Part shown: in pieces, positions 9,581-30,759 of the stretch
Layout of the letters: each line of letters starts with the position of its first letter
Position numbering within the stretch: position 1 is the first letter of the stretch
Position numbers and translations under genes: made by a program
Assembly (NCBI GenBank): GCA_017960525.1
Contig: JAGCZA010000049.1
Coordinates: 8,911 to 72,910 of the forward strand
Length of the DNA: 64,000 nt
Direction: 5' to 3'
Source of the DNA: Prevotella sp.
Lineage (GTDB): Bacteria; Bacteroidota; Bacteroidia; Bacteroidales; Bacteroidaceae
Notes under the pieces: model-generated
Databases searched by the model: none
The model's input: the letters and a program-made list of their open reading frames with translations, nothing else
Told to the model about the DNA's origin: nothing

Positions 9581-12500
9581 TTAATCTTCTATCAGTTCGT
9601 AGTCATCGTGGTCGCCGCTGGCAGCCCTCGCTTCGTCGCGGTATTTCGATGGGGTCATTCCAGTAATCTGCTGGAAGTGATGGGTGAAGTTGGCGGAGTC
9701 GGGGAATCCTGTGCTGAACGAAATGTCGGCAACGTTGTTGTTTGTCTGTTCCAACATTTCTTTGGCTTTCTCTATCCTGAAGTTTGTCAAAAGGTCTTTG
9801 GGTGTCAGGCCTTTGGCCTTCATCAGTTTTTCCTCCAGTTCTGCCCTTCCCATATTGAGGTGTGCTAGCAGCTGGTCGATTGAAAGTTTTTGCTTGGCAT
9901 AGTTTTGCTCCAGCCATTCGTTTACTTGCTTCATAAACTCGACGTTATCCTGGCTGCTGTCTGCGTTGTTAATACCCTTTGCGGATTTCTTCCCCCTGTT
10001 GCGCAGATAGTACTGCCTTCCGAAGAGGATTCCCACGCCGATGATGGCGGCGAGCAGCAAGTAGATCCAGATGGCACTCTTTGAGAACAGGAAAGCCGAT
10101 GGCACCACTATTGTGATTTCCTTCTGGTCGTACTTCTCAGGAGATTCGAGCAGGAAAGCCTTCACCTTCAGTTTGTAGGTGCCGGCAGGCAGGTCGGCGT
10201 ATGTGGCTGTGCGGTCTTTTGAGGCGTTGTTCCACTCGTCATCGTAGCCTTCGAGCATATACTGGTAGTGCACGCGGTGCTGCAATTGGTAGTTGAGCGA
10301 GACGAAACGCAATGCAAACTGGTCGTCGTGCGACGGCAGTTCGATGCTCTTTGCATCGGGCACGTAGAAGGGGAATACGCTTCCCTTGCGTGGGCTCTGA
10401 AGTTCTCCGTTGAGCCAGAAATCGGTAAACCTGAGCTTGAGCACCGATCCCGACGAGTTTTCCAGCTTCTGGCGGTCGATGCGGTAGTAGCCGTCGGTGG
10501 TTCCGAAGAGTATGATGTCGTTTGGCATGGTGACTGCTGACCCCTCGGAGCAGGTGGTCTCGTCTACGCCTTCCAGACTGGAAAACATAGAGAAGATGTT
10601 CTTCGAGGTGTCGAATGAGCAGATGATGTTGTCGGTGTCGAACCACACATTGCCCCTGTTGTCGAAAGTGATGCTCCTGATTTCCTCAGACGGCAGTCCG
10701 TCTTTGGAGCCAAAGTGTTCAAAGAGCCAGCAGCCCTCGCTGTCCTTGCCAATGGTGTGGGCCAGTCCGCCACCATTGGTGCCAACCCAGATGCCTCCCT
10801 GTTTGTCGTTTCCCAGACAGACCACGTCGTTTGAGAGTAATATCTTTTCTGGTTCTTCTTCTGAGTTCTGTAGCTGTTCAATAGTCACTCTGCCACTTTT
10901 ATACGACATTATTAGTATGCCGTCGGTGGTGCCTGCCCACACTTTTCCTTCCTTGTCGATGGCCAGGTCTCTCACTTTCATGAAATTGTGGTGCGGATAG
11001 CCTCTCATCTTGTTCTTTGGACTGAGGAATGTGTGTGTGTCTTTCACCAGCATATTCACGCCTCCGCCATAGGTGGCCACCCAGATGTTGCCTTCAGCAT
11101 CTTCCACCGCGTTGTAGGCGCGGTTGTCGCTGAGCGATTCCGAGTTGTCTTCTTCGTGCTGGTAGTTTTTCATACTGTATCTGCCACCTTCATAGAGTGT
11201 CATCTTGAAGAGGCCGTAGTCTTTCGACGACAGCCAGTAGTTGCCTTTCGAGTCTTTCATAATGCCGTAGATGCGGCCCAGCGGTTTTCCCTTCTCGTCG
11301 TTCCTGATGATAGTTTTTGAGCCGTTGGCATCGAAGACGAAGAGCATACTGTTCTTGTTGGCCATGAGTAGCAGCTTGCGTTCCTGGTCGTAGTATAGTC
11401 CGCGAATCTCATTGTCAAGCGTGGTGGTGGCATCTGGAACAGGGCGTATGCGCTCGATGGTCTTGTTTATGATTTCGAGCTTCTCCATTCCCCTCCTGAT
11501 GGTCGACTCCCAGACCACACCCTCGTTTAGTTCAAGTTGGGCGTTCATGGTGTTCGACAGGTTCCAAGGGTTTTCCGGGTCGTTGTGGAAATAGTGAATC
11601 TTGTCCTCCTCACGGTTGTAGTAGCCATAGCCGCCCTTGTTCATACGTACCCACACGATACCGTTTGTCTCTGAGAAGAATGCTCCCCAGCTGTCGTAGT
11701 CGGGCACTCTCACATCCTGTGTGAAGAATTTCTCGTCATTCGTTGCGCCGACAATGAGTCTGGAAGCTCCCATCCTGCTGTCGGCAAACCATATCAGTCC
11801 GTGGCTGTCTACAAAAATGGAAATGACGGGCAGCCCGCCCTGTCGGATAATGCTTGGTTCCTGTCCGTATGAAAATGTGACAATTTTTCCTGACTGTGTG
11901 CCGGCGAAGATATTGTAGCCATTGGAGTACAGGCAGGAAATCTTCTCGTCCAAGAAGATGCCTTTCCGCTCGATGGTGAGGTTGCTGGCATCCAGGCGGT
12001 GTATGCCCTCGTTGGTGCCCAGCCAGATGTCGTTCTGGTAGCCCTCGGCCATTGAGGTGACGTTGAGTCCGGCTGTGGTGATGAGCTGTGCGCTGATGTT
12101 GTCCTGTTCAACCCTCATCTTGTAGATGCCCACGTTGTCAACAGTCACGAGCACATCGCCGTTGCTGGTCACGGTGATGGGGGTGCTGACGCGGAACTCG
12201 TCGCTGCCGTTCACGTTTTCAAACGGATTGACGAAGCAGTCGTTGCTCCTTTTCACCACGAAGATGCGCTGGTCGTACATACGCATCCAGACGTTCTGCT
12301 GGTTGTCGATGGCAATGTCCCATATACGGTTGTGCAGATTGGGGATGTGGCTTGCCGGTCCTGTCTGGTAGTTATAGAAGTTGTAGCCATCGAAGCGCGA
12401 CAGTCCGTTCCAGGTGGCAATCCACAAGTAGCCGTAGCCATCTTGTTTTATCTGCGCAATAGAGTTACTTGCCAGCCCGTCCTCTGTTGAGTAGTGCGAC

Positions 12501-12592
12501 AGTTTTGCCTGCAGTTGCTGGGCTGTGGCAGTATTTCCGCCAATGGCGAGTAGTGCTGTTAATGCCAGTAGTTTGGCCTTTCCTAATTTCAT
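9581..12592 (-). CDS. Membrane-spanning AraC regulator with HTCS-type beta-propeller/Y_Y_Y sensor (no kinase or receiver domain)
   Basis: Reg_prop repeats (WIATWNG, WLGTNEG, WVGTNGGG), Y_Y_Y (YQYMLEGYD..TYADLPAGTY), one TM, AraC HTH (IADISFSTGFPDSANFTHHFQQITGMTPSKYR equivalent). Confidence 0.85.
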   Translation of the reverse strand: MKLGKAKLLALTALLAIGGNTATAQQLQAKLSHYSTEDGLASNSIAQIKQDGYGYLWIATWNGLSRFDGYNFYNYQTGPASHIPNLHNRIWDIAIDNQQNVWMRMYDQRIFVVKRSNDCFVNPFENVNGSDEFRVSTPITVTSNGDVLVTVDNVGIYKMRVEQDNISAQLITTAGLNVTSMAEGYQNDIWLGTNEGIHRLDASNLTIERKGIFLDEKISCLYSNGYNIFAGTQSGKIVTFSYGQEPSIIRQGGLPVISIFVDSHGLIWFADSRMGASRLIVGATNDEKFFTQDVRVPDYDSWGAFFSETNGIVWVRMNKGGYGYYNREEDKIHYFHNDPENPWNLSNTMNAQLELNEGVVWESTIRRGMEKLEIINKTIERIRPVPDATTTLDNEIRGLYYDQERKLLLMANKNSMLFVFDANGSKTIIRNDEKGKPLGRIYGIMKDSKGNYWLSSKDYGLFKMTLYEGGRYSMKNYQHEEDNSESLSDNRAYNAVEDAEGNIWVATYGGGVNMLVKDTHTFLSPKNKMRGYPHHNFMKVRDLAIDKEGKVWAGTTDGILIMSYKSGRVTIEQLQNSEEEPEKILLSNDVVCLGNDKQGGIWVGTNGGGLAHTIGKDSEGCWLFEHFGSKDGLPSEEIRSITFDNRGNVWFDTDNIICSFDTSKNIFSMFSSLEGVDETTCSEGSAVTMPNDIILFGTTDGYYRIDRQKLENSSGSVLKLRFTDFWLNGELQSPRKGSVFPFYVPDAKSIELPSHDDQFALRFVSLNYQLQHRVHYQYMLEGYDDEWNNASKDRTATYADLPAGTYKLKVKAFLLESPEKYDQKEITIVVPSAFLFSKSAIWIYLLLAAIIGVGILFGRQYYLRNRGKKSAKGINNADSSQDNVEFMKQVNEWLEQNYAKQKLSIDQLLAHLNMGRAELEEKLMKAKGLTPKDLLTNFRIEKAKEMLEQTNNNVADISFSTGFPDSANFTHHFQQITGMTPSKYRDEARAASGDHDDYELIED

Positions 12593-12657: not shown

Positions 12658-13797
12658 TTAAACTTTTTTAATATGCTTGGGGGTTGCACTAAGCTCTATT
12701 CTGAAGGTTGTGCCTCTCCCCACTTCAGAGTTCTTCACGTATATTCGGCCCTTGTGATACTCTTCCACGATGCGTTTGGCCAGCGACAGGCCAAGGCCCC
12801 ATCCGCGTTTCTTGGTGGTGAAGCCGGGGCGGAACACATTCTTCACGTTTTTCTTTTTGATACCCTTGCCCGTATCTGCCACCTCGATGGCCACAATGTC
12901 GTCTTCTTCCAGCAGCCACAAGTCTATGCGCCCGCCGCCGCCTTCCATAGCGTCGACGGCGTTTTTGCATAGGTTTTCAACCACCCATTCAAAGAGCGAA
13001 GCGTTCATCCTGACGATGACATCGTGGTCGGGATAGTGGCCGCGAATGGCCACTTTCTGCGAGGTGCGCTTGTCCATGTAGGCAATGACGCGGTCGAGCA
13101 CCTGGTTCATCGACGCCTCGACGGGTTCTGGCAGCGACCCTATTTTCGAGAATCGGTCGGCTATGAGTTCCAGCCGCTTCACGTCTTTTTCCATTTCGGG
13201 TATAAGGTCGTCGTCGGGATAGTTCTCGCGCAGCACTTCCACCCACGCCATCAGCGACGAGATAGGCGTACCCAACTGGTGGGCGGTCTCTTTCGACAGA
13301 CCCACCCACACCTTGTTCTGCTCGGCGCGTTTCGAGGCCAGCAGCGCAACGATGGCCACGACCACGAAGATGAAAGCGATGCCCAGCGCCCAGTAAGGGT
13401 AGAGTCGGAGCCGTCGGAGCATAGTCGACTCGTCGTAGCAGAGCAGCTGGAAGTCACTGATGCGTATGGAGTCGCCGTTGGCCTTCATACGCTGTGCTAC
13501 GTCTGTGGTATCGTCGATGTTGCGGAAGTCCAGCAGTCGGCCGCTGTTGTCGAGCACCACCACGGGGATAGTGTTGTTGCCTTCTATGACCTTCATCACC
13601 AGCGAGAGGTCGGTCTGCTCGTCGGCCTCGGTGAAGACGCGCATGGCTTCTGCCCATACCTCCATACGGCCTTGCTCCTCACGCTGCAGATCGCGCACCA
13701 GATAGTGGGAAACCAGCAGCGAGGCGACGGCAATTACTGCCGCCGCCGCGACCAGCCAGATTTTCACCTGGCGCATCCGGTCTGTCCACTGCTTCAT
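12658..13797 (-). CDS. Orphan sensor histidine kinase (resembles PorY-type Bacteroidota kinases)
   Basis: Two TMs, H-box ETAHQLGTP, N-box ENLCKNA, DTGKG and GWGLGL. Confidence 0.85.
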   Translation of the reverse strand: MKQWTDRMRQVKIWLVAAAAVIAVASLLVSHYLVRDLQREEQGRMEVWAEAMRVFTEADEQTDLSLVMKVIEGNNTIPVVVLDNSGRLLDFRNIDDTTDVAQRMKANGDSIRISDFQLLCYDESTMLRRLRLYPYWALGIAFIFVVVAIVALLASKRAEQNKVWVGLSKETAHQLGTPISSLMAWVEVLRENYPDDDLIPEMEKDVKRLELIADRFSKIGSLPEPVEASMNQVLDRVIAYMDKRTSQKVAIRGHYPDHDVIVRMNASLFEWVVENLCKNAVDAMEGGGGRIDLWLLEEDDIVAIEVADTGKGIKKKNVKNVFRPGFTTKKRGWGLGLSLAKRIVEEYHKGRIYVKNSEVGRGTTFRIELSATPKHIKKV

Positions 13798-13819: not shown

Positions 13820-14884
13820 TCAGAATATCATTTCAGACATTATGGTGAGCACGAATGAAATGTCGGCCACGTCTACATTTCCATCGCCATTGACATCTGC
13901 GACCATGTCTGGATTTTCATTTGCCATCTGGGTTAATATGGACGATATGTCGGCCACGTCGGCTGTGCCGTCGCCGTTGACATCGCCCGTCGGCTTGTTC
14001 ATTGTCATAATGACTGTTGCCGGGCGTATGATTTTCTCGTCGGGTGTGACGAGCAGAATGTTGTCCATACTGACGATTTCATTGTCTTTCACGTCGTTGT
14101 CGACCACCAGCTTGATATTGATGATGTCGCCCTCATTGCCGGCGAGCAGCGAGTTGGACGTCGATGCCATTAGTACGCGCAGACGCTTTTCCGAAGCTTT
14201 GGCGTAGAGTGTGTGGTAGCGCCAGCTTGTGCGTCCGGCAATGTCGTAGGCATCTGTGGTGGTCTTTAAAGCAACGCCCTTTGGCAGTATGAGGTCAAAC
14301 TGCACGAGTGTGATGTCATCGTCGGTGTTTGCCAGCCCGATGGTTAGCGTCTGTTCCGATTCGGGTATTGGCAGGAGTTTCGACTTGAAGTAGAGCGTCG
14401 ACTCCACCTGGGGTGTGAGTCCCACGCTGATGGTGTAGTCGCTCTGCCGGATGGCTGTCTCGTCGGAGCTGGAAATGAGTATGTTTTCCAGGCTGATGTT
14501 TCCGTTGACGAATGTGTTGTCGGCCTTCAGTATAACCTTGATGATGGCTCCGCTGTGGTTGTTGATGGCGTAGTTGCCGCTCGACGAGAGCGTGAACCTC
14601 GTGATGCCGTCGGTGGTGATGGCCGTCAGGTTCTGGTAGCGCCAGCTGGTGCGTCCGGCCATATCGTAGCCCGCCTCGCCCTCTTTCATCTTCACGCCGT
14701 CGGGCAGTCGCAAATCGAACTGAACTGTTGTGACCTCGGTATCTGGGTTTGTCAGGTCTATGAGCATCTGTTTTTCTTCGCCAGGCAGGATGTTAAACTC
14801 TTCTATTGACAGGCTGGCTTCTGCTCTGGTGGCCATCGGCAGCATCAATGCCAGCGTAAATGCGAACAAAAATATCTTTTTCAT
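13820..14884 (-). CDS. Secreted protein with two cohesin-like domains and a C-terminal dockerin
   Basis: Signal peptide MKKIFLFAF; two internal repeats sharing VQFDL.LP.GV and YD.AGRTSWRY; duplicated DVNGDG..DVAD at 13820-13987. Confidence 0.7.
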   Translation of the reverse strand: MKKIFLFAFTLALMLPMATRAEASLSIEEFNILPGEEKQMLIDLTNPDTEVTTVQFDLRLPDGVKMKEGEAGYDMAGRTSWRYQNLTAITTDGITRFTLSSSGNYAINNHSGAIIKVILKADNTFVNGNISLENILISSSDETAIRQSDYTISVGLTPQVESTLYFKSKLLPIPESEQTLTIGLANTDDDITLVQFDLILPKGVALKTTTDAYDIAGRTSWRYHTLYAKASEKRLRVLMASTSNSLLAGNEGDIINIKLVVDNDVKDNEIVSMDNILLVTPDEKIIRPATVIMTMNKPTGDVNGDGTADVADISSILTQMANENPDMVADVNGDGNVDVADISFVLTIMSEMIF

Positions 14885-14928
14885 ATTCGGTGTGTTCTGT
14901 TTAATCGGTGTGTTAAATAGATGTGGCA

Positions 14929-16893
14929 TCACTCCAGGGTGATGTTTACCAATTCGTCATAGTCGGCTGTGTCCACCAAACCGTCGCCGTTAATGTCGGC
15001 AGCGTTGTCTTTTGGCCTTTTGCCAATCAGCATATTGGCCAGTGCCACCAGGTCGGCACCGTCCACCAAGTCGTCTCCATTCAGGTCGCCCACTTTATTA
15101 GGAACAATGTTCTCGTCTACCCCCTCATATACAATTTCGTTGGCGTTCCTGGTGGTGATTTTTATTATATTGGTGTTTTGCGAGGGTACGAAGTGGAACC
15201 ACACTTTGGCTTTTTCGCCAGCCCCCACGTAGTAACCGTTTCCTGACACGACGATGCCTTCCTGATGGAGCCACAGTTCGCCGTTGTATTCCGACCCCAT
15301 ATTTTCCAGAGTGACTTCCAGTTCGCACAGCTGGCCGGGTTTGCGGCCTGTGGTGTACGAAAGGTCAGTTACGTTCAGATGGGTGTGCGGGCACTGGGTG
15401 AGCGTCAGAGTGTTGCCTGCAATGTGGGCGGAAATGTAGCGCAAGTCGCTGCCCACGGTGGTTTTCCAGTAGTTGGTGCCAGCCTCTGAGCAGACGAGCA
15501 CAATGCGATAGTCGCCGTCGGCCACGGTTGGGTCAATAGTGATCGTGTTGGTCAGCTTGACGTATTGGAGAGGCTGAAAGTTGTGGGCCTGCTGATAGAC
15601 GAAGAGCACCTTCACGATGTCGTTGCCCTTTACCAGCCCCAGGCCAAAGTCGGCCTCGTAGTTGCTGGTCATGGCGTTGAGCAGTTCCCAATAAATGCTG
15701 ATGCCGGTGAAGCCGTAGGCATTACGCTCAATCTGGTTGTTGCTTTTCAACTGTATGTCGCGTGTGGAGAGGTTCTTTTCCTCTTTGTATGTGGTGCCCG
15801 ATTGGTAGGGCTGCAAGTCGATGAGCATCTCCTGAGAGCGTGAATAGCCGTCGCGCAGTGTGACCCCGTCGGGCTTGCCGTCGGCCACGGCCAGCAGGAA
15901 GTAGCCGTCGCAGTTGGCCCTTGTCCAGCCCCAGTTGATGTGGTAGGTGCCGTCAGTATTGTAGCCGTCCACAACGAAGCTGTGTCCGGCATTGCTCGAC
16001 GTGACGCCCGAATAGAGTAGGGGGCGTCCGGCTTCCATCTCGGTGTAAGCTATTTGGTCCCATTGTGCTGCACCGTACGAGGCACGTATCATGCGGCGGG
16101 CCGTTGGCGCATAGTCAAAGTATTCGGCCAGAACTGCTGGCACTTCGTTGCCTGCGGCTTCGGTCAGGGTGGAGGAGTAGTCGGCCTTGATGGCCGCTCC
16201 GCAATAGGCTATGAGCTTGGCCGCTCCGTCGGTCTCCATATTGCCCCAGGGGAAGGAGGTGACGGGCTTTTCGGGCACGCCAATACCGTATTTCTTGGTG
16301 TTGTAGGCCGGTATAGCCTTCGTGGTGGCAGTCGGGTGGCGATGGTACGACATAATCTGGGCGATGGCCACTGGCACACAGCCGCCCATGCTGTTCTGCC
16401 CGTTGTGGTAGGGGCATTGGCTGTTGTAGGGCGCATGCTGGTTCCAATGGGTAGTCACCATTGGGGCAATGTTGTGGCGGTTGGCGGCTGATGCAGCTGC
16501 AACGGGCGTGCCTCCTTGGCCGAGCAAGGCAATCTCTTCGGCCATCCACTCCATCCATGCCTTCAGAGCAGGAGGCGTGGTCTCGTCGTCGCCGAGCGAA
16601 CCGCTGTCGGCATAGCCCAGTATGGCGGGTGTGCGGTCGTCAGCTGAGACGATGACGAAGCCCTCGCCGGAGCCGATGTTGAAGCCGTAGAGCTGTGGTG
16701 TCTCCACCGCCAGTTGCAGCGGCTGCAGTGCCTGCTGACGGCGGTGATGGTTGCTGTTGGCACTATGGTTCATCAGAGCCAGTTGGGCCAGTGCCTTTTG
16801 GCGGGCCTGCTCTTTGTCAATGGGGGCAGCCGAGAGGGCCAGCGAAAACAAGGCCAGCGCCAGGGTTCCCAAAAATCTTTGTTTCATATTCAT
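14929..16893 (-). CDS. C10 (streptopain-like) cysteine protease with prodomain and C-terminal dockerin
   Basis: GFVIVSADD prodomain, WNQ..PYN, GCVPVAIAQIM (Cys), GHSFVVDGY (His), INWGW; dockerin at 14929-15090. Confidence 0.88.
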   Translation of the reverse strand: MNMKQRFLGTLALALFSLALSAAPIDKEQARQKALAQLALMNHSANSNHHRRQQALQPLQLAVETPQLYGFNIGSGEGFVIVSADDRTPAILGYADSGSLGDDETTPPALKAWMEWMAEEIALLGQGGTPVAAASAANRHNIAPMVTTHWNQHAPYNSQCPYHNGQNSMGGCVPVAIAQIMSYHRHPTATTKAIPAYNTKKYGIGVPEKPVTSFPWGNMETDGAAKLIAYCGAAIKADYSSTLTEAAGNEVPAVLAEYFDYAPTARRMIRASYGAAQWDQIAYTEMEAGRPLLYSGVTSSNAGHSFVVDGYNTDGTYHINWGWTRANCDGYFLLAVADGKPDGVTLRDGYSRSQEMLIDLQPYQSGTTYKEEKNLSTRDIQLKSNNQIERNAYGFTGISIYWELLNAMTSNYEADFGLGLVKGNDIVKVLFVYQQAHNFQPLQYVKLTNTITIDPTVADGDYRIVLVCSEAGTNYWKTTVGSDLRYISAHIAGNTLTLTQCPHTHLNVTDLSYTTGRKPGQLCELEVTLENMGSEYNGELWLHQEGIVVSGNGYYVGAGEKAKVWFHFVPSQNTNIIKITTRNANEIVYEGVDENIVPNKVGDLNGDDLVDGADLVALANMLIGKRPKDNAADINGDGLVDTADYDELVNITLE

Positions 16894-16916: not shown

Positions 16917-17333
16917 TTATTGTTGGCATTTGTCACATATTCCTTTCACTATATAGCTGGCCGAGGTCATACTGAACCCTTGGGGCAGTTCTACTGGCGG
17001 CACCGCCATCTGTTCGAAGCAGAACGTGCGTTGGCACTGCTCGCAGAAGAAGTGTACGTGCAGGTCATCGTCGTGCTGCGTGCTGTGGCTGTGGCACAGT
17101 TCGTAGCGCGTGCCTGCCGATCCGTCGTCGATGGTGTGCACCAGGTGGTGGTCGCGGAAGAGCGTCAGGGTGCGGAATACGCCCGACTTGTCAATCGACA
17201 GTATCTGGTATTCCAGCTCCGAGAGGGTGAGTGGCCGCTGGGCCAAGGCCAAGGCCCTCGCCACCACTATCCGGTTGGCTGTGGGTTTGACGCCGTGGCT
17301 TTCCAGCAGAGTGCTACATTCCTCGTGTGTCAT
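16917..17333 (-). CDS. Fur-family metal-responsive regulator
   Basis: GVKPTANR, VFRTLTLF, HVHFFCEQC and GICDKC (two CxxC). Confidence 0.88.
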   Translation of the reverse strand: MTHEECSTLLESHGVKPTANRIVVARALALAQRPLTLSELEYQILSIDKSGVFRTLTLFRDHHLVHTIDDGSAGTRYELCHSHSTQHDDDLHVHFFCEQCQRTFCFEQMAVPPVELPQGFSMTSASYIVKGICDKCQQ

Positions 17334-17658: not shown

Positions 17659-18516
17659 ATGATGAGACGACTTTTTATGGTACTTTCGCTGTCGCTGTGG
17701 CTGGCGCTCCCTTCGTTGGGGCAGGTGGTTGCCGACAGCGGGGCTGTGATTCCTGCCGATACTGAGGCGGTGGCGGCAGCCAGCATCGAGGAACTGATTG
17801 GCGACGAGGAAATGGCCGAGTTGGAGGAAATGGCTGCCAGCGAGGCTTCGCTGCACCAGCAGTTGAAGTCGAAGTTTGTGGAAGGTTCGACGGAGTTTAT
17901 GTCGCTTGTGGCGCTGGCCTTGGTGCTGGGCCTGGCTTTCTGCATTGAGCGCATTATCTATCTGACGCTGGCGGAAGTGAAGACCGGCAAACTGATGGCC
18001 GACATCGACAAGCGGCTGGAGCAGGGCGATGTGGAGGGCGCCAAGACGCTCTGCCGCGACACTCGTGGCCCTGTGGCGTCGGTGTGCTATCAGGGCCTGA
18101 TGCATGCTGACGAGGATATGTCGTCGATTGAGCGCAACATCGTGAACTACGGCAGTCTGCAGGCGGCGCGTCTGGAGCGTGGCTGCTCGTGGATTCGGCT
18201 GTTCATCGCCATTGCCCCTTCGCTTGGGTTCCTGGGAACCGTGGTGGGTATGGTGATGGCTTTCGACCACATTCAGGAGGCAGGTGACATTTCGCCCACC
18301 ATCGTGGCCGAGGGTATGAAGGTGGCGCTCATCACCACCATCTTCGGCATCATTGTGGCCCTCATCCTGCAGGTGTTCTACAATTTCATCATTGCGAAGA
18401 TTGACCACCTGACGGAGCAGATGGAAGAGGCTGCCATTACGCTGATGGATATGATTGGGAAAGGGAAGGCGCGCTTCGCTAGTGAGGGCGCTTCGCTAGT
18501 GAATAGAGAAAAGTGA
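17659..18516 (+). CDS. exbB: MotA/TolQ/ExbB proton channel protein
   Basis: IAPSLGFLGTVVGM and ALITTIFG. Confidence 0.88.
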   Translation: MMRRLFMVLSLSLWLALPSLGQVVADSGAVIPADTEAVAAASIEELIGDEEMAELEEMAASEASLHQQLKSKFVEGSTEFMSLVALALVLGLAFCIERIIYLTLAEVKTGKLMADIDKRLEQGDVEGAKTLCRDTRGPVASVCYQGLMHADEDMSSIERNIVNYGSLQAARLERGCSWIRLFIAIAPSLGFLGTVVGMVMAFDHIQEAGDISPTIVAEGMKVALITTIFGIIVALILQVFYNFIIAKIDHLTEQMEEAAITLMDMIGKGKARFASEGASLVNREK

Positions 18517-18544
18517 AGAGTGAAGAGTGAAAAGTGAGTGAAAG
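18471..18544 (+). repeat. GCGCTTCGCT head x2 plus (AGTGAAG) heptamer array
   Basis: GCGCTTCGCTAGTGA at 18471 and 18488, heptamers from 18512. Confidence 0.8.
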
Positions 18545-18646
18545 ATGATTGACGCACTACTATATTTAATATATGTGTTGCTGGCACTTTCGGTAGTGCT
18601 GGTGGCGTGGTCGCTGATTCACCAATGGATGACAAGCGACAAGTAA
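18545..18646 (+). CDS. 33-aa single-pass membrane protein (below ORF-track cutoff)
   Basis: MIDALLYLIYVLLALSVVLVAWSLIHQWMTSDK*, fills the exbB-exbD gap. Confidence 0.55.
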   Translation: MIDALLYLIYVLLALSVVLVAWSLIHQWMTSDK

Positions 18647-18678
18647 GATCGAAAATCGTAAATCGAAAATAATAATCG

Positions 18679-19278
18679 ATGTTTAAGAGCCGGAAAAAGC
18701 GGAGCCTGCCCGAACTGAACACCACATCGACAGCCGACATCTCGTTTATGCTGTTGATTTTCTTCCTTGTCACCTCGTCGATGGACACTGACAAGGGACT
18801 GGCCCGCCAATTGCCCGCTCCAGAGAATCCTGTCGAAGAGCAGGAACTCATCGTGAAGAAGCGTAATGTGCTGCTGCTCACGCTTGACGGTGACGACCGC
18901 CTGACGTGCAATGGTGACAGCATCAATACCTCTCAGTTGACAGAGCGCGTGACTGATTTCGTGGCCAATGCCGCTGGCGACCCTGCGCTGCCTGAACTGA
19001 GTGAGCGCGACGTCCATCTACTGGGCCGCTGCAAGGTGAGCGACCGCCACGTCATCTTCTTGCGTGTGAGCCGTGAGACCAGTTACAATGCCTATTTCGA
19101 GATGCAGAACGCCATTGTGGCTGGTTACAACCAGTTGCGCGACGCGCTGGCCCAAAGCCGCTTCGGTCACGCCTACGCGCAATGCAATGCCGAGGAGCGT
19201 GATGCTGTGGCAATGGTTTATCCGCAGCGCATCAGCGAGGAGATTGAGAGCGCTTCGCTAGTGAACAGTGAAGAGTGA
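18679..19278 (+). CDS. exbD: ExbD/TolR family protein
   Basis: LPELNTTSTADISFMLLIFFLVT. Confidence 0.85.
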   Translation: MFKSRKKRSLPELNTTSTADISFMLLIFFLVTSSMDTDKGLARQLPAPENPVEEQELIVKKRNVLLLTLDGDDRLTCNGDSINTSQLTERVTDFVANAAGDPALPELSERDVHLLGRCKVSDRHVIFLRVSRETSYNAYFEMQNAIVAGYNQLRDALAQSRFGHAYAQCNAEERDAVAMVYPQRISEEIESASLVNSEE

Positions 19279-19301
19279 ATAGTGAAGAGTGAAAGGTGAG
19301 G
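19250..19301 (+). repeat. GCGCTTCGCT head plus (AGTGAAN)x5-6 array
   Basis: Same 16-nt head as 18488; supplies the exbD stop codon. Confidence 0.8.
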
Positions 19302-19309
19302 ATTGAGAT

Positions 19310-19765
19310 ATGAGAAGAGGGGTATTCAAAAGACGGGAGCATCAGATGCCAGGGCTGAACACAGCGGCTCTGCCCGACCTCATTTTCACCGTACTCTTCT
19401 TCTTTATGATTGTCACTCACATGCGCGACGTGGACCCGCTGGTGCGCTACAACGTGCCACAGGGCACGGAACTTCAGAAGTTGGCGCACAAGTCGTCGGT
19501 GGTCTATATCTACGTGGGGCGCACGGCTAAGGGGAGTGACCAGTTTGCCATCCAGTTGAACAACCGTCTTGCCACCGTCGACGATATCCGTGCCTACATT
19601 GAGGAAGAGCGCAGCCGTATGGCCACCGACGACCAGGCGCGCCTGACTGTGAGCATCAAGGCCGACCGCGATGTGCCGATGAGCCTTATTGCCGACGTAA
19701 AGGAAGCCCTGCGTCAGAGTTATGCCTTGAAGATAAACTATTCTGCAACGAACAAACCGCAATAA
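19310..19765 (+). CDS. exbD: ExbD/TolR family protein
   Basis: LNTAALPDLIFTVLFFFM and IKADRDVP. Confidence 0.85.
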   Translation: MRRGVFKRREHQMPGLNTAALPDLIFTVLFFFMIVTHMRDVDPLVRYNVPQGTELQKLAHKSSVVYIYVGRTAKGSDQFAIQLNNRLATVDDIRAYIEEERSRMATDDQARLTVSIKADRDVPMSLIADVKEALRQSYALKINYSATNKPQ

Positions 19766-29557: not shown

Positions 29558-29850
29558 GCTAACACTCTTCTGGGGTGGAACGCACAGATTTCATTTGCTC
29601 AACCGCGACTCGAACTGGACCCTCGAAAGAGCGTAACGGGCAAAAAGTAGGAAGGTTATAATACCAGTTATTCCTATATCTATACTCCAAGAGGCTTGCG
29701 CATAGCGTAGGTTTCCCATAGGAGTATAGAGGTTGGTCCAGACCTGAGTCGCGTATGGTGAAGACCTACGCTTTTCTTGTTTCCAAGGTTAGTGTGGGTT
29801 TCCCAGAGACGAGAGTAAATTTAGTACTAACCAATAAAAACAAAGAGCAA
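29558..29850 (+). ncRNA. Candidate structured leader RNA, unclassified
   Basis: At least six complementary segment pairs of 6-17 bp (see findings). Confidence 0.5.
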
Positions 29851-30759
29851 ATGAAAATAACTCGTTTATTACTCCCCATCATCACATTGTTGCTGATGAC
29901 AACTTCCATTCATCGTGTCACGGCGCAAACCCTTCAGGTGCGCTATTCGAGTAGTAACACAGACCATTTATTCGGCGACGTGAACGGCGACGATAATGTT
30001 GATGTGGCAGACATCGCTGCAGTCATCAGCGTTATGGCTGGGAAATTCGATGTCTCGCCCGAAGAGGCTGACGTGAACGACGACAGCAAAGTCGACGTGG
30101 CCGACATCGCAGCCATCATCACGGCTATGGCTGAAGTTAAAGATGATGAAACCTCCTATACATCCTGTCCCGACGAGAACCACCCACATGCAATTGACCT
30201 CGGCCTACCCTCTGGCACAAAGTGGGCGTGCTGCAACGTGGGGGCGAGCACGCCGGAAGGATACGGGAATTATTATGCGTGGGGAGAGACGCAGCCGAAA
30301 AGCGAGTATTACTGGAGTACGTATGCATATTATCATAATTATAATGGTAATAGCAATGTCGATAAAGATGAAATTGTGGACATTGGCTCCGACATTGCCG
30401 GCACAGAATATGACGCAGCTACGGCCAACTGGGGCGCACCTTGGCACATGCCAACTCATGCGCAGGTTGATGAATTGATGAATAACACGATGTCCACTTG
30501 GACTATCCAGAACGGTGTGGAAGGACGTATGTTTTATGGCTCTAATGGGGGTAACATTTTCCTGCCCGCTGCGGGCTACAATTTGGGGTCTGGCATCGTT
30601 GGCAAGGGTTCAGGCGGCGAATACTGGGTGTCGACGATTGTCGAGGGACTGGGTAGCTTTAGCGATGCGAATTATTTCGGTTTCAATGACGACGATAAGT
30701 ATATTAGGTTTGGTTGGGTCAGCCGCTGCGCAGGGATGACGGTGCGCCCTGCGCGTTAA
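29851..30759 (+). CDS. Secreted dockerin plus DLGLPSG (Fibrobacter major-paralog / lectin-like) domain protein
   Basis: Signal peptide; dockerin at 29974-30135; IDLGLPSGTKWACCNVGA..YGNYYAWGET; C-terminal YW.ST...R..G.TVRP. Confidence 0.75.
   Translation: MKITRLLLPIITLLLMTTSIHRVTAQTLQVRYSSSNTDHLFGDVNGDDNVDVADIAAVISVMAGKFDVSPEEADVNDDSKVDVADIAAIITAMAEVKDDETSYTSCPDENHPHAIDLGLPSGTKWACCNVGASTPEGYGNYYAWGETQPKSEYYWSTYAYYHNYNGNSNVDKDEIVDIGSDIAGTEYDAATANWGAPWHMPTHAQVDELMNNTMSTWTIQNGVEGRMFYGSNGGNIFLPAAGYNLGSGIVGKGSGGEYWVSTIVEGLGSFSDANYFGFNDDDKYIRFGWVSRCAGMTVRPAR

Follow-up and report, generated by a model that had tools for sequence, protein, structure and literature searches.

In a 64,000-nucleotide stretch of the genome of a rumen Prevotella sp. 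(assembly GCA_017960525.1, contig JAGCZA010000049.1, positions 8,911 to 72,910 of the forward strand), hereafter referred to as the window, two adjacent genes encode a predicted secreted cysteine protease that ends in a dockerin (P1) and an adaptor-type protein composed of a signal peptide, two predicted cohesins and a dockerin (P2). With moderate confidence these two proteins are regarded as one unit of a cohesin-dockerin protein-display system, in which the protease would be held by the adaptor, and the adaptor by a cohesin anchored through type IX secretion (T9SS). This gene arrangement had been noticed in a first-pass annotation made from the letters alone, which described a dockerin-tailed C10 protease directly followed by a secreted protein with two repeats and a dockerin, and it was confirmed at the same place by Pfam searches and repeat alignment. 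Coordinates are those of the window; C-numbers (C31, C126 etc.) designate contigs of the same genome and L-numbers loci that were compared with it. The features of both genes are:

14929-16893, minus strand: P1, predicted zymogen of a secreted C10 (streptopain/interpain-like) cysteine protease, 654 amino acids, with the dockerin at its C-terminus (Pfam, PDB matches, catalytic motifs)
16531-16830, minus strand: P1 inhibitory prodomain of I69 (Spi) type, residues 22-121 (PF13734, 3.5e-20, 72.7 bits)
15898-16446, minus strand: P1 C10 catalytic domain, residues 150-332 (PF01640, 2.4e-47, 162 bits)
15094-15897, minus strand: P1 middle region, about 265 amino acids (BLAST to paralogous C10 proteases)
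14932-15093, minus strand: P1 dockerin, Dockerin_1 at residues 602-649 (Pfam, PDB, subtype consensus)
13820-14884, minus strand: P2, adaptor-type protein with signal peptide, predicted cohesins 1 and 2 and dockerin, 354 amino acids
14411-14815, minus strand: P2 predicted cohesin module 1, residues 24-158 (AlphaFold2 and Foldseek)
13997-14389, minus strand: P2 predicted cohesin module 2, residues 166-296 (identity to module 1 and full-length model)
13823-13996, minus strand: P2 dockerin, majority class 'DVADI', its two segments nearly symmetric (PF00404, 26.3 bits)

P1 starts with a type I signal peptide, and among solved structures it comes closest, in a PDB sequence search, to interpain A from Prevotella intermedia (2e-31) and to streptopain (4e-28). 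Its catalytic motifs, GGC173VPVAIAQIM and AGH306SFVVDG...HINWGW, are intact, and the predicted protease has the Cys-His dyad domain behind an inhibitory prodomain by which the C10 family is defined. Interpain A and streptopain (SpeB, MEROPS C10) have the I69-type prodomain, the C10 domain and the Cys/His motifs in common with P1, but unlike them P1 ends in a dockerin, at a position where paralogues in its own genome show either a tail or a dockerin. The middle region, for which no family match was obtained, is homologous to the corresponding region of the paralogous C10 protease C36:32627-35896 (BLAST, E 8e-8), which bears a short T9SS tail at the C-terminus where P1 has its dockerin, and also to an open reading frame (ORF) on contig C10 (C10:29476-33681). 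A dockerin segment consists of a calcium-binding loop, D-x-N-x-D-G-x-x-D-x-x-D, followed by a helix, and the two tandem F-hand segments of a type I dockerin can be read from the sequence in both P1 and P2. In P1 these are DLNGDDLVDGAD and DINGDGLVDTAD, with asymmetric helices; they scored 22.1 bits on the whole protein (Pfam cut-off for PF00404: 22.9 bits) as against 27.2 bits in a six-frame scan of the genome (C126:23854-24000), and matched a solved dockerin of Clostridium acetobutylicum (PDB 6KG9) at 5e-5. Another protein of this genome, C83:170-1924 (L178), unites an I69 prodomain, a C10 protease, a cohesin-like module and a dockerin on one polypeptide and is, judged by its domain order, a predicted protease serving as its own adaptor.

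P2, whose ORF spans 13820-14932 on the minus strand with the ATG at 14884 as the likely true start, likewise has a type I signal peptide. Its dockerin segments, DVNGDGTADVAD and DVNGDGNVDVAD, score above the Pfam cut-off and find their best sequence match in the PDB in the dockerin of 2JNK/2OZN. The two repeats preceding the dockerin share 40% identity (E 7e-28). Pfam Cohesin (PF00963) did not match P2, and searches of Pfam, NCBIfam and PDB sequences with P2 alone returned the dockerin only. The Cohesin family was reached by three of 23 full-length P2 homologues (best 2e-7), the 65%-identical orthologue has a precomputed Cohesin match, the paralogue C13:23298-23660 is found by Pfam Cohesin (31.2 bits) as well as by a hidden Markov model (HMM) of the P2 family (4e-18), and the P2-family profile matches the ScaB cohesin 5N5P of Ruminococcus flavefaciens (E 0.0099); by sequence, the link of the P2 repeats to PF00963 is only transitive. 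An HMM of the P2 repeat picks out 14 ORFs in the genome, and all four places at which Pfam Cohesin matches are recovered among them. Those homologues of P2 that are named in public sources are without exception entered as 'hypothetical protein'.

A Foldseek search with the whole chain of P2 was ambiguous, since cohesin dyads (including 3L8Q) appeared alongside integrin legs and MSCRAMM adhesins at a template modelling (TM) score of about 0.3, and therefore repeat 1 was folded alone, which settled the fold. The AlphaFold2 model of repeat 1, built with an alignment, reached a predicted local distance difference test (pLDDT) of 96.3 and a predicted TM score of 0.89, and among its matches in the PDB ranks 1-33 were all taken by cohesins (TM 0.63-0.76), those of types I, II and III as well as non-cellulosomal ones, with the first non-cohesin, YcnI, at rank 34. 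In this model, repeat 1 has the nine-stranded jelly-roll beta-sandwich of about 140 residues that characterises cohesins, and module 2 shows the same strand pattern in the full-length model (pLDDT 89.9). By their modelled fold, the P2 repeats are cohesins. A cohesin call that formerly rested on motif resemblance is thus backed by a confident model and its 33 top matches, and the repeats did not turn out to be carbohydrate-binding or other immunoglobulin-like (Ig) domains, the outcome that the first-pass annotation had named as its refutation. With a signal peptide, two predicted cohesins, a dockerin and no enzyme or other Pfam domain, P2 displays the architecture of an adaptor scaffoldin, and the reading as an adaptor, which had been put forward before, fits this architecture as well as the genome census reported below.

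The partnership of P1 and P2 is suggested by several genomic associations. Each of the two proteins has a module that is singular within the genome: the P1 dockerin is the only member of the 'NG(T/A)D-LV' subtype, and the cohesins of P2 are the only ones of their subtype, scoring 165 and 144 bits with the P2-repeat HMM as compared with at most 84 bits for the rest of the 14 cohesin-like ORFs. The two genes lie 44 nucleotides apart on the same strand, and on the orthologous metagenome contig L015 (65% identity) the order Fur regulator, C10 protease, adaptor and kinase is kept. In six of the 14 cohesin ORFs, P2 among them, a dockerin ORF is found immediately upstream on the same strand, where about 0.4 would be expected by chance (binomial p ~1e-6), and each of the five other pairs has its own dockerin variant. 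Moreover, among 120 P2 homologues surveyed for their architecture, a dockerin placed N-terminal to P2-type cohesins belongs to one subtype in 15 of 15 cases (consensus (V/L)NG(T/A)D(L/I)V...N(I/M)(I/L)LG(K/R), also in L011 and L012), and this NG(T/A)D type was never found C-terminal to P2-type cohesins. When the consensus was compared with the own genome, the P1 dockerin was the best match by far (60% identity, 80 bits; next ORF 47 bits). Taken as a Rosetta-stone argument, these fusions and the match of P1 to them lead to the view that the P1 dockerin has its partners in the cohesins of P2. Furthermore, a Big_2 protein ending in the dockerin subtype of P1 is encoded directly upstream of another adaptor. 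For the next step, the dockerin of P2 is 80% identical to that of C31:16026-18842, a cargo gene paired with a gene for 225 amino acids of cohesin plus tail (C31:18957-19631), which is hence the first candidate anchor for P2. Both pairings, P1 with P2 and P2 with its anchor, we infer from sequence.

Candidate anchors exist because a short T9SS tail is found at the C-terminus of seven to eight of the 14 cohesin-like ORFs. The SprA translocon of the T9SS is present in the genome, but the standard model of T9SS tails gave only 6-12 matches. Instead, about 45 ORFs carry a conserved C-terminal tail of 40-45 residues, ...TGIS...VYDLQGRRV...KGLYIVNGKKVIIK, which escapes PF18962 and TIGR04183 and had no NCBIfam or Pfam match even at E 10 (e.g., C13:53914-56109, C101:29452-34410 and C126:1227-3077). 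In P. intermedia, for which cleavage and glycosylation of short C-terminal domains (CTDs) were shown experimentally, the motifs comprise a cleavage site T/GI, motif B with Tyr, Gly and a basic residue (Y..G.R), motif D (GxYI) and motif E with terminal lysines (K..K) (PMC11969387), and the short tails of the present genome match them in order and spacing within about 45 residues. The same study regarded P. intermedia as the sole species known to possess short CTDs (PMC11969387); in contrast, about 45 ORFs of this rumen Prevotella carry them, but P1, P2 and a third dockerin protein of the window (P3, described below) do not. As the first-pass annotation had stated, none of these three has a T9SS C-terminal domain: PF18962 and TIGR04183 gave no match, all three are absent from the short-tail list, and a tail used as positive control was detected. 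Their C-termini are dockerin helices or a lectin-like domain. A dockerin in the role of a cryptic T9SS tail was considered and rejected, as the dockerin is helical and shares none of the motifs B, D and E.

The tail-bearing cohesin proteins include C31:18957-19631, C13:23160-24395, C119:10480-11679, C8:79-759 and proteins on C81 and C68, so that the anchoring scaffold for which a search had been advised is represented by candidates. On contig C68 (2-10065), large proteins with cohesin-like modules are the products of three consecutive genes; in two of these proteins a dockerin is followed by a cohesin and this by a short T9SS tail, and the dockerin is of an unusual type, GDP(N/T)(E/G)DGE(V/I)T.SDA.... 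The same cassette of dockerin, cohesin and tail also ends proteins with BspA-type leucine-rich repeats (LRR) and GLUG repeats in relatives (L011 3974-6340; L012 3645-7163).

A census of the genome, likewise proposed beforehand, gave 66 dockerin ORFs above the Pfam cut-off in a six-frame scan and 91 with an HMM iterated on the own genome, next to the 14 cohesin-like ORFs. The dockerin is mostly situated at the extreme C-terminus. Among the 91 ORFs the other domains are BspA-type LRR (18), C10 with I69 (six by Pfam), RGL11 rhamnogalacturonan lyase (five), M6 peptidase (two), endonuclease I (two), pectate lyases, a single glycoside hydrolase of each of the families GH30 and GH98, and others. No cellulase family occurs in the tallies of these 91 ORFs and no CBM3 scaffoldin was seen. 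Rather than a cellulosome, the set is a kit for the display of adhesins, proteases, nucleases and pectinases, and an earlier description of the assembly as non-cellulolytic was largely right, the cargo being LRR proteins, C10 and M6 peptidases, nucleases and pectin lyases. The dockerins fall into a majority class marked by a pair of 'DVADI' helices (about 41 ORFs), to which those of P2 and P3 belong, single-segment 'half' dockerins (about 20) and a divergent group (about 28) including that of P1. The half dockerins, with one calcium loop and one helix, DVNGDGKVDVADIATILSEMA, end about 20 proteins, mostly of the BspA-type LRR kind (e.g., C136:66580-68199, C139:53905-55725, C37:148-2394, C98:4620-6335 and C26:18024-20426), and are preceded by a conserved module, ...TVYATKDGY.DSDVATATI.WRDG....

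From these elements the following arrangement is proposed. The private dockerin subtype of P1 would plug into the two cohesins of P2, and as these are two, one adaptor could carry up to two protease molecules. The majority-class dockerin of P2 would in turn plug into a tail-bearing cohesin, with C31:18957-19631 as the best candidate, and this anchor would be exported by the T9SS and linked to surface lipopolysaccharide (LPS). The protease would thereby be held at the cell surface beside adhesins, nucleases and pectin lyases with the same majority-class dockerin. Several points weigh against this arrangement. In classical scaffoldins, a dockerin on a cohesin-bearing chain is usually not the ligand of those cohesins, and by this rule the fused proteins of the order dockerin, cohesin, cohesin, tail can be read against a pairing of P1 with P2. 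On C31, the candidate anchor is only a weak match to the cohesin HMM (E 2e-5). The location of P1 and P2 at the surface is an assumption, because both have only a Sec signal and no known signal for export across the outer membrane. Finally, counts and adjacencies are lower bounds, since the 3.97 Mb of this draft assembly are spread over 146 contigs.

The cellulosome rule, by which fused relatives point away from P1 and P2 as partners, speaks at the same time for a different function of P2, namely that of a self-assembling or general adaptor, whose cohesins bind majority-class dockerins including its own, giving rise to chains or lattices, while the P1 dockerin binds some other cohesin. This would agree with the near symmetry of the P2 dockerin and its membership in the same class as about 60 other dockerins, and adaptors of P2 architecture adjoin varied neighbour genes. 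However, the P1 dockerin and P2 cohesin subtypes are each unique in the genome and stand side by side, also in the orthologous locus, the five other dockerin-to-cohesin pairs each possess a variant of their own, and no other cohesin of the genome stands out as a partner of P1, so that a general adaptor is considered unlikely. The first-pass annotation had suggested that the adaptor could chain or self-polymerise; since genomic association favours a dedicated protease dockerin as the ligand of the P2 cohesins, self-polymerisation is not the best-supported option.

A second alternative retains the contact between P1 and P2 and places it elsewhere: the complex would be periplasmic or cargo of outer-membrane vesicles, and its purpose packaging or zymogen storage instead of display. 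It derives from what P1, P2 and almost all of the remaining dockerin proteins have in common: a type I signal peptide, and neither a lipobox nor a long or short T9SS tail. On the other hand, paralogous enzymes carry a T9SS tail where the dockerin would be, such tails are also borne by half of the cohesin proteins, and a cargo of BspA adhesins, pectin lyases and nucleases makes sense extracellularly, which renders this alternative rather improbable. Display by P1, P2 and an anchor, as preferred here, raises the question of how components without a tail leave the cell, for which T9SS hitch-hiking, vesicles and an unrecognised route were considered as options. The C10 paralogue with a tail in place of the dockerin suggests that the dockerin may replace the export-and-anchor tail and that the proteins work outside. 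Hitch-hiking in the strict sense, with dockerin-tagged proteins such as P1 and P2 folding in the periplasm, binding there to a tail-bearing cohesin, riding with it as passengers through the wide SprA translocon and ending up anchored to LPS, is a speculative idea to which we assign a low probability.

That no complex is formed at all, the repeats being spacers or ligand-binding Ig-like domains and the dockerins calcium-stabilised tails with another role, is very unlikely: non-cellulosomal cohesin- and dockerin-like modules without demonstrated partners are indeed known across bacteria and archaea, according to works cited in PMC6487960, and Pfam Cohesin fails on P2 itself, but the fold matches cohesins specifically and not generic Ig domains, dockerin-to-cohesin gene pairs recur, subtypes of both modules travel together, and cohesin-like modules and dockerins strongly co-occur across genomes. 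The last point was obtained from scans of 301 sampled genomes from 35 genera of the GTDB family to which the present genome belongs. Cohesin-like modules were detected in 120 of these genomes (17 of the 35 genera) and Pfam dockerins in 168, and dockerins were present in 113 of the 120 genomes with cohesin-like modules (odds ratio 37, uncorrected for phylogeny). Dockerin-rich genomes, with 50-170 candidates at first look, occur in several genera of the family. Within its own genus, the present genome with 145 such candidates is the sole dockerin-rich one among 17 sampled, the others having 27 at most, which suggests a lineage-specific expansion or acquisition. The Lon protease encoded in the window shares 88% identity with its counterparts in uncultured Prevotella genomes from red deer and sheep, and 79% with that of Xylanibacter (Prevotella) brevis.

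Further features of the window are the third dockerin protein and the genes flanking P1 and P2:

29851-30759, plus strand: P3, signal peptide, N-terminal majority-class dockerin (29974-30123) and C-terminal domain (PF00404, 28.8 bits)
16917-17333, minus strand: Fur-family regulator directly upstream of P1 (PF01475, 3.7e-8)
12658-13797, minus strand: sensor histidine kinase directly downstream of P2 (HATPase_c, 4.8e-22)

The dockerin of P3, already reported at 29851, proved to be real. The ORF spans 29755-30759 on the plus strand, with the start probably at 29851. It belongs to a family with about eight paralogues in the genome, in which the dockerin is N-terminal, right behind the signal peptide (C119:50914-52044, C119:52048-53046, C73:8480-9718, C86:32775-33647, C96:40337-43072 and the C-terminus of C10:29476-33681). 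The C-terminal domain of the family ends in ...FLPAAGYR...YW(S/T)S...SVRPV(R/K)K; in P3 it had no Pfam, NCBIfam or PDB match and by motif only resembles DUF1566 or Fibrobacter-paralogous lectin-like domains.

No terminator-like sites were found on the minus strand between the genes for the Fur regulator, P1, P2 and the kinase in a scan of the window. P1 and P2 are divergent from an ExbB-ExbD-ExbD cluster at 17659-19765. Interpain A frees haem from haemoglobin, and together with the Fur neighbour this makes a link of the locus to iron or haem conceivable. Beyond the kinase lies a protein of 1003 amino acids (9581-12592) with the propeller, Y_Y_Y and AraC helix-turn-helix parts of a hybrid two-component sensor, without kinase and receiver domains, and it may constitute a split hybrid two-component system with the adjacent stand-alone histidine kinase (to 13797).

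Judged by its sequences, the locus is best described as a putative cohesin-dockerin assembly in a Gram-negative rumen Prevotella with presumed T9SS anchoring and non-cellulolytic cargo, whose specific pairings are plausible. Among known systems, the adaptor scaffoldins ScaA of Acetivibrio cellulolyticus (dyad 3L8Q) and ScaC of Ruminococcus flavefaciens are, like P2, secreted and non-catalytic and combine tandem cohesins with a dockerin, and both they and P2 are presumed bridges from dockerin-tagged enzymes to an anchoring cohesin. Unlike these Firmicutes adaptors, P2 occurs in a Gram-negative host, has repeats too divergent for Pfam Cohesin and would carry a protease instead of a glycoside hydrolase; the anchor, provided by surface-layer homology domains or sortase in Firmicutes cellulosomes, is here presumed to be a short T9SS C-terminal tail. 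Cohesin-dockerin contacts of non-cellulolytic secreted enzymes, as proposed here, exist in the toxin/glycosidase pairs of Clostridium perfringens (2JH2, 2VO8, 2W1N, 2OZN), whose cohesins are among the best structural matches of P2 repeat 1 in Foldseek. In contrast to the P2 system, C. perfringens has its modules on large glycosidases and possesses neither a dedicated adaptor nor anchoring by the T9SS.

In the bovine rumen metagenome, Bensoussan et al. (2017) assigned dockerins to Prevotella, including an ORF named 'streptopain precursor/peptidase C10-DOC', found that functions of protein catabolism carry dockerins, and attributed 1.7% of cohesins to Bacteroidetes (PMC6487960). The C10-DOC ORF agrees with P1 in architecture, habitat and genus, but a Prevotella cohesin partner, adaptors, tail-bearing cohesins and the pairing of genes were not described there. 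The statement in the first-pass annotation that functional cohesin-dockerin complexes are not well established in Prevotellaceae needs a correction, in that Prevotella dockerins, C10-dockerin included, had already been reported (PMC6487960); their cohesin partners had not. In 2020 the role of Bacteroidetes dockerins was still called undefined (PMC7480376), and our literature search turned up neither a paper that connects dockerins with the T9SS nor one on their cohesin partners in Prevotella.

For roughly ten years, dockerins have been on record in rumen Bacteroidota with neither partner nor role assigned to them (PMC6487960; PMC7480376), and the kit presented here may explain what they bind. 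With one protease, one adaptor with two predicted cohesins and only a few tail-bearing cohesins encoded elsewhere in the genome, the locus offers a small, defined and testable case. If the proposed pairings are true, cohesin-dockerin assembly would extend beyond Gram-positive fibre degraders to abundant Gram-negative gut bacteria, which would use it to equip their surface with proteases, adhesins, nucleases and pectinases, and the export across the outer membrane of proteins without a known signal would become a concrete question. The annotation of a dominant rumen genus would then improve as well, as standard family models at present overlook some 45 short T9SS tails and 14 cohesin modules in each genome. 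Should hitch-hiking also prove true, one export-and-anchor signal would serve dozens of cargoes via a cohesin-dockerin hierarchy.

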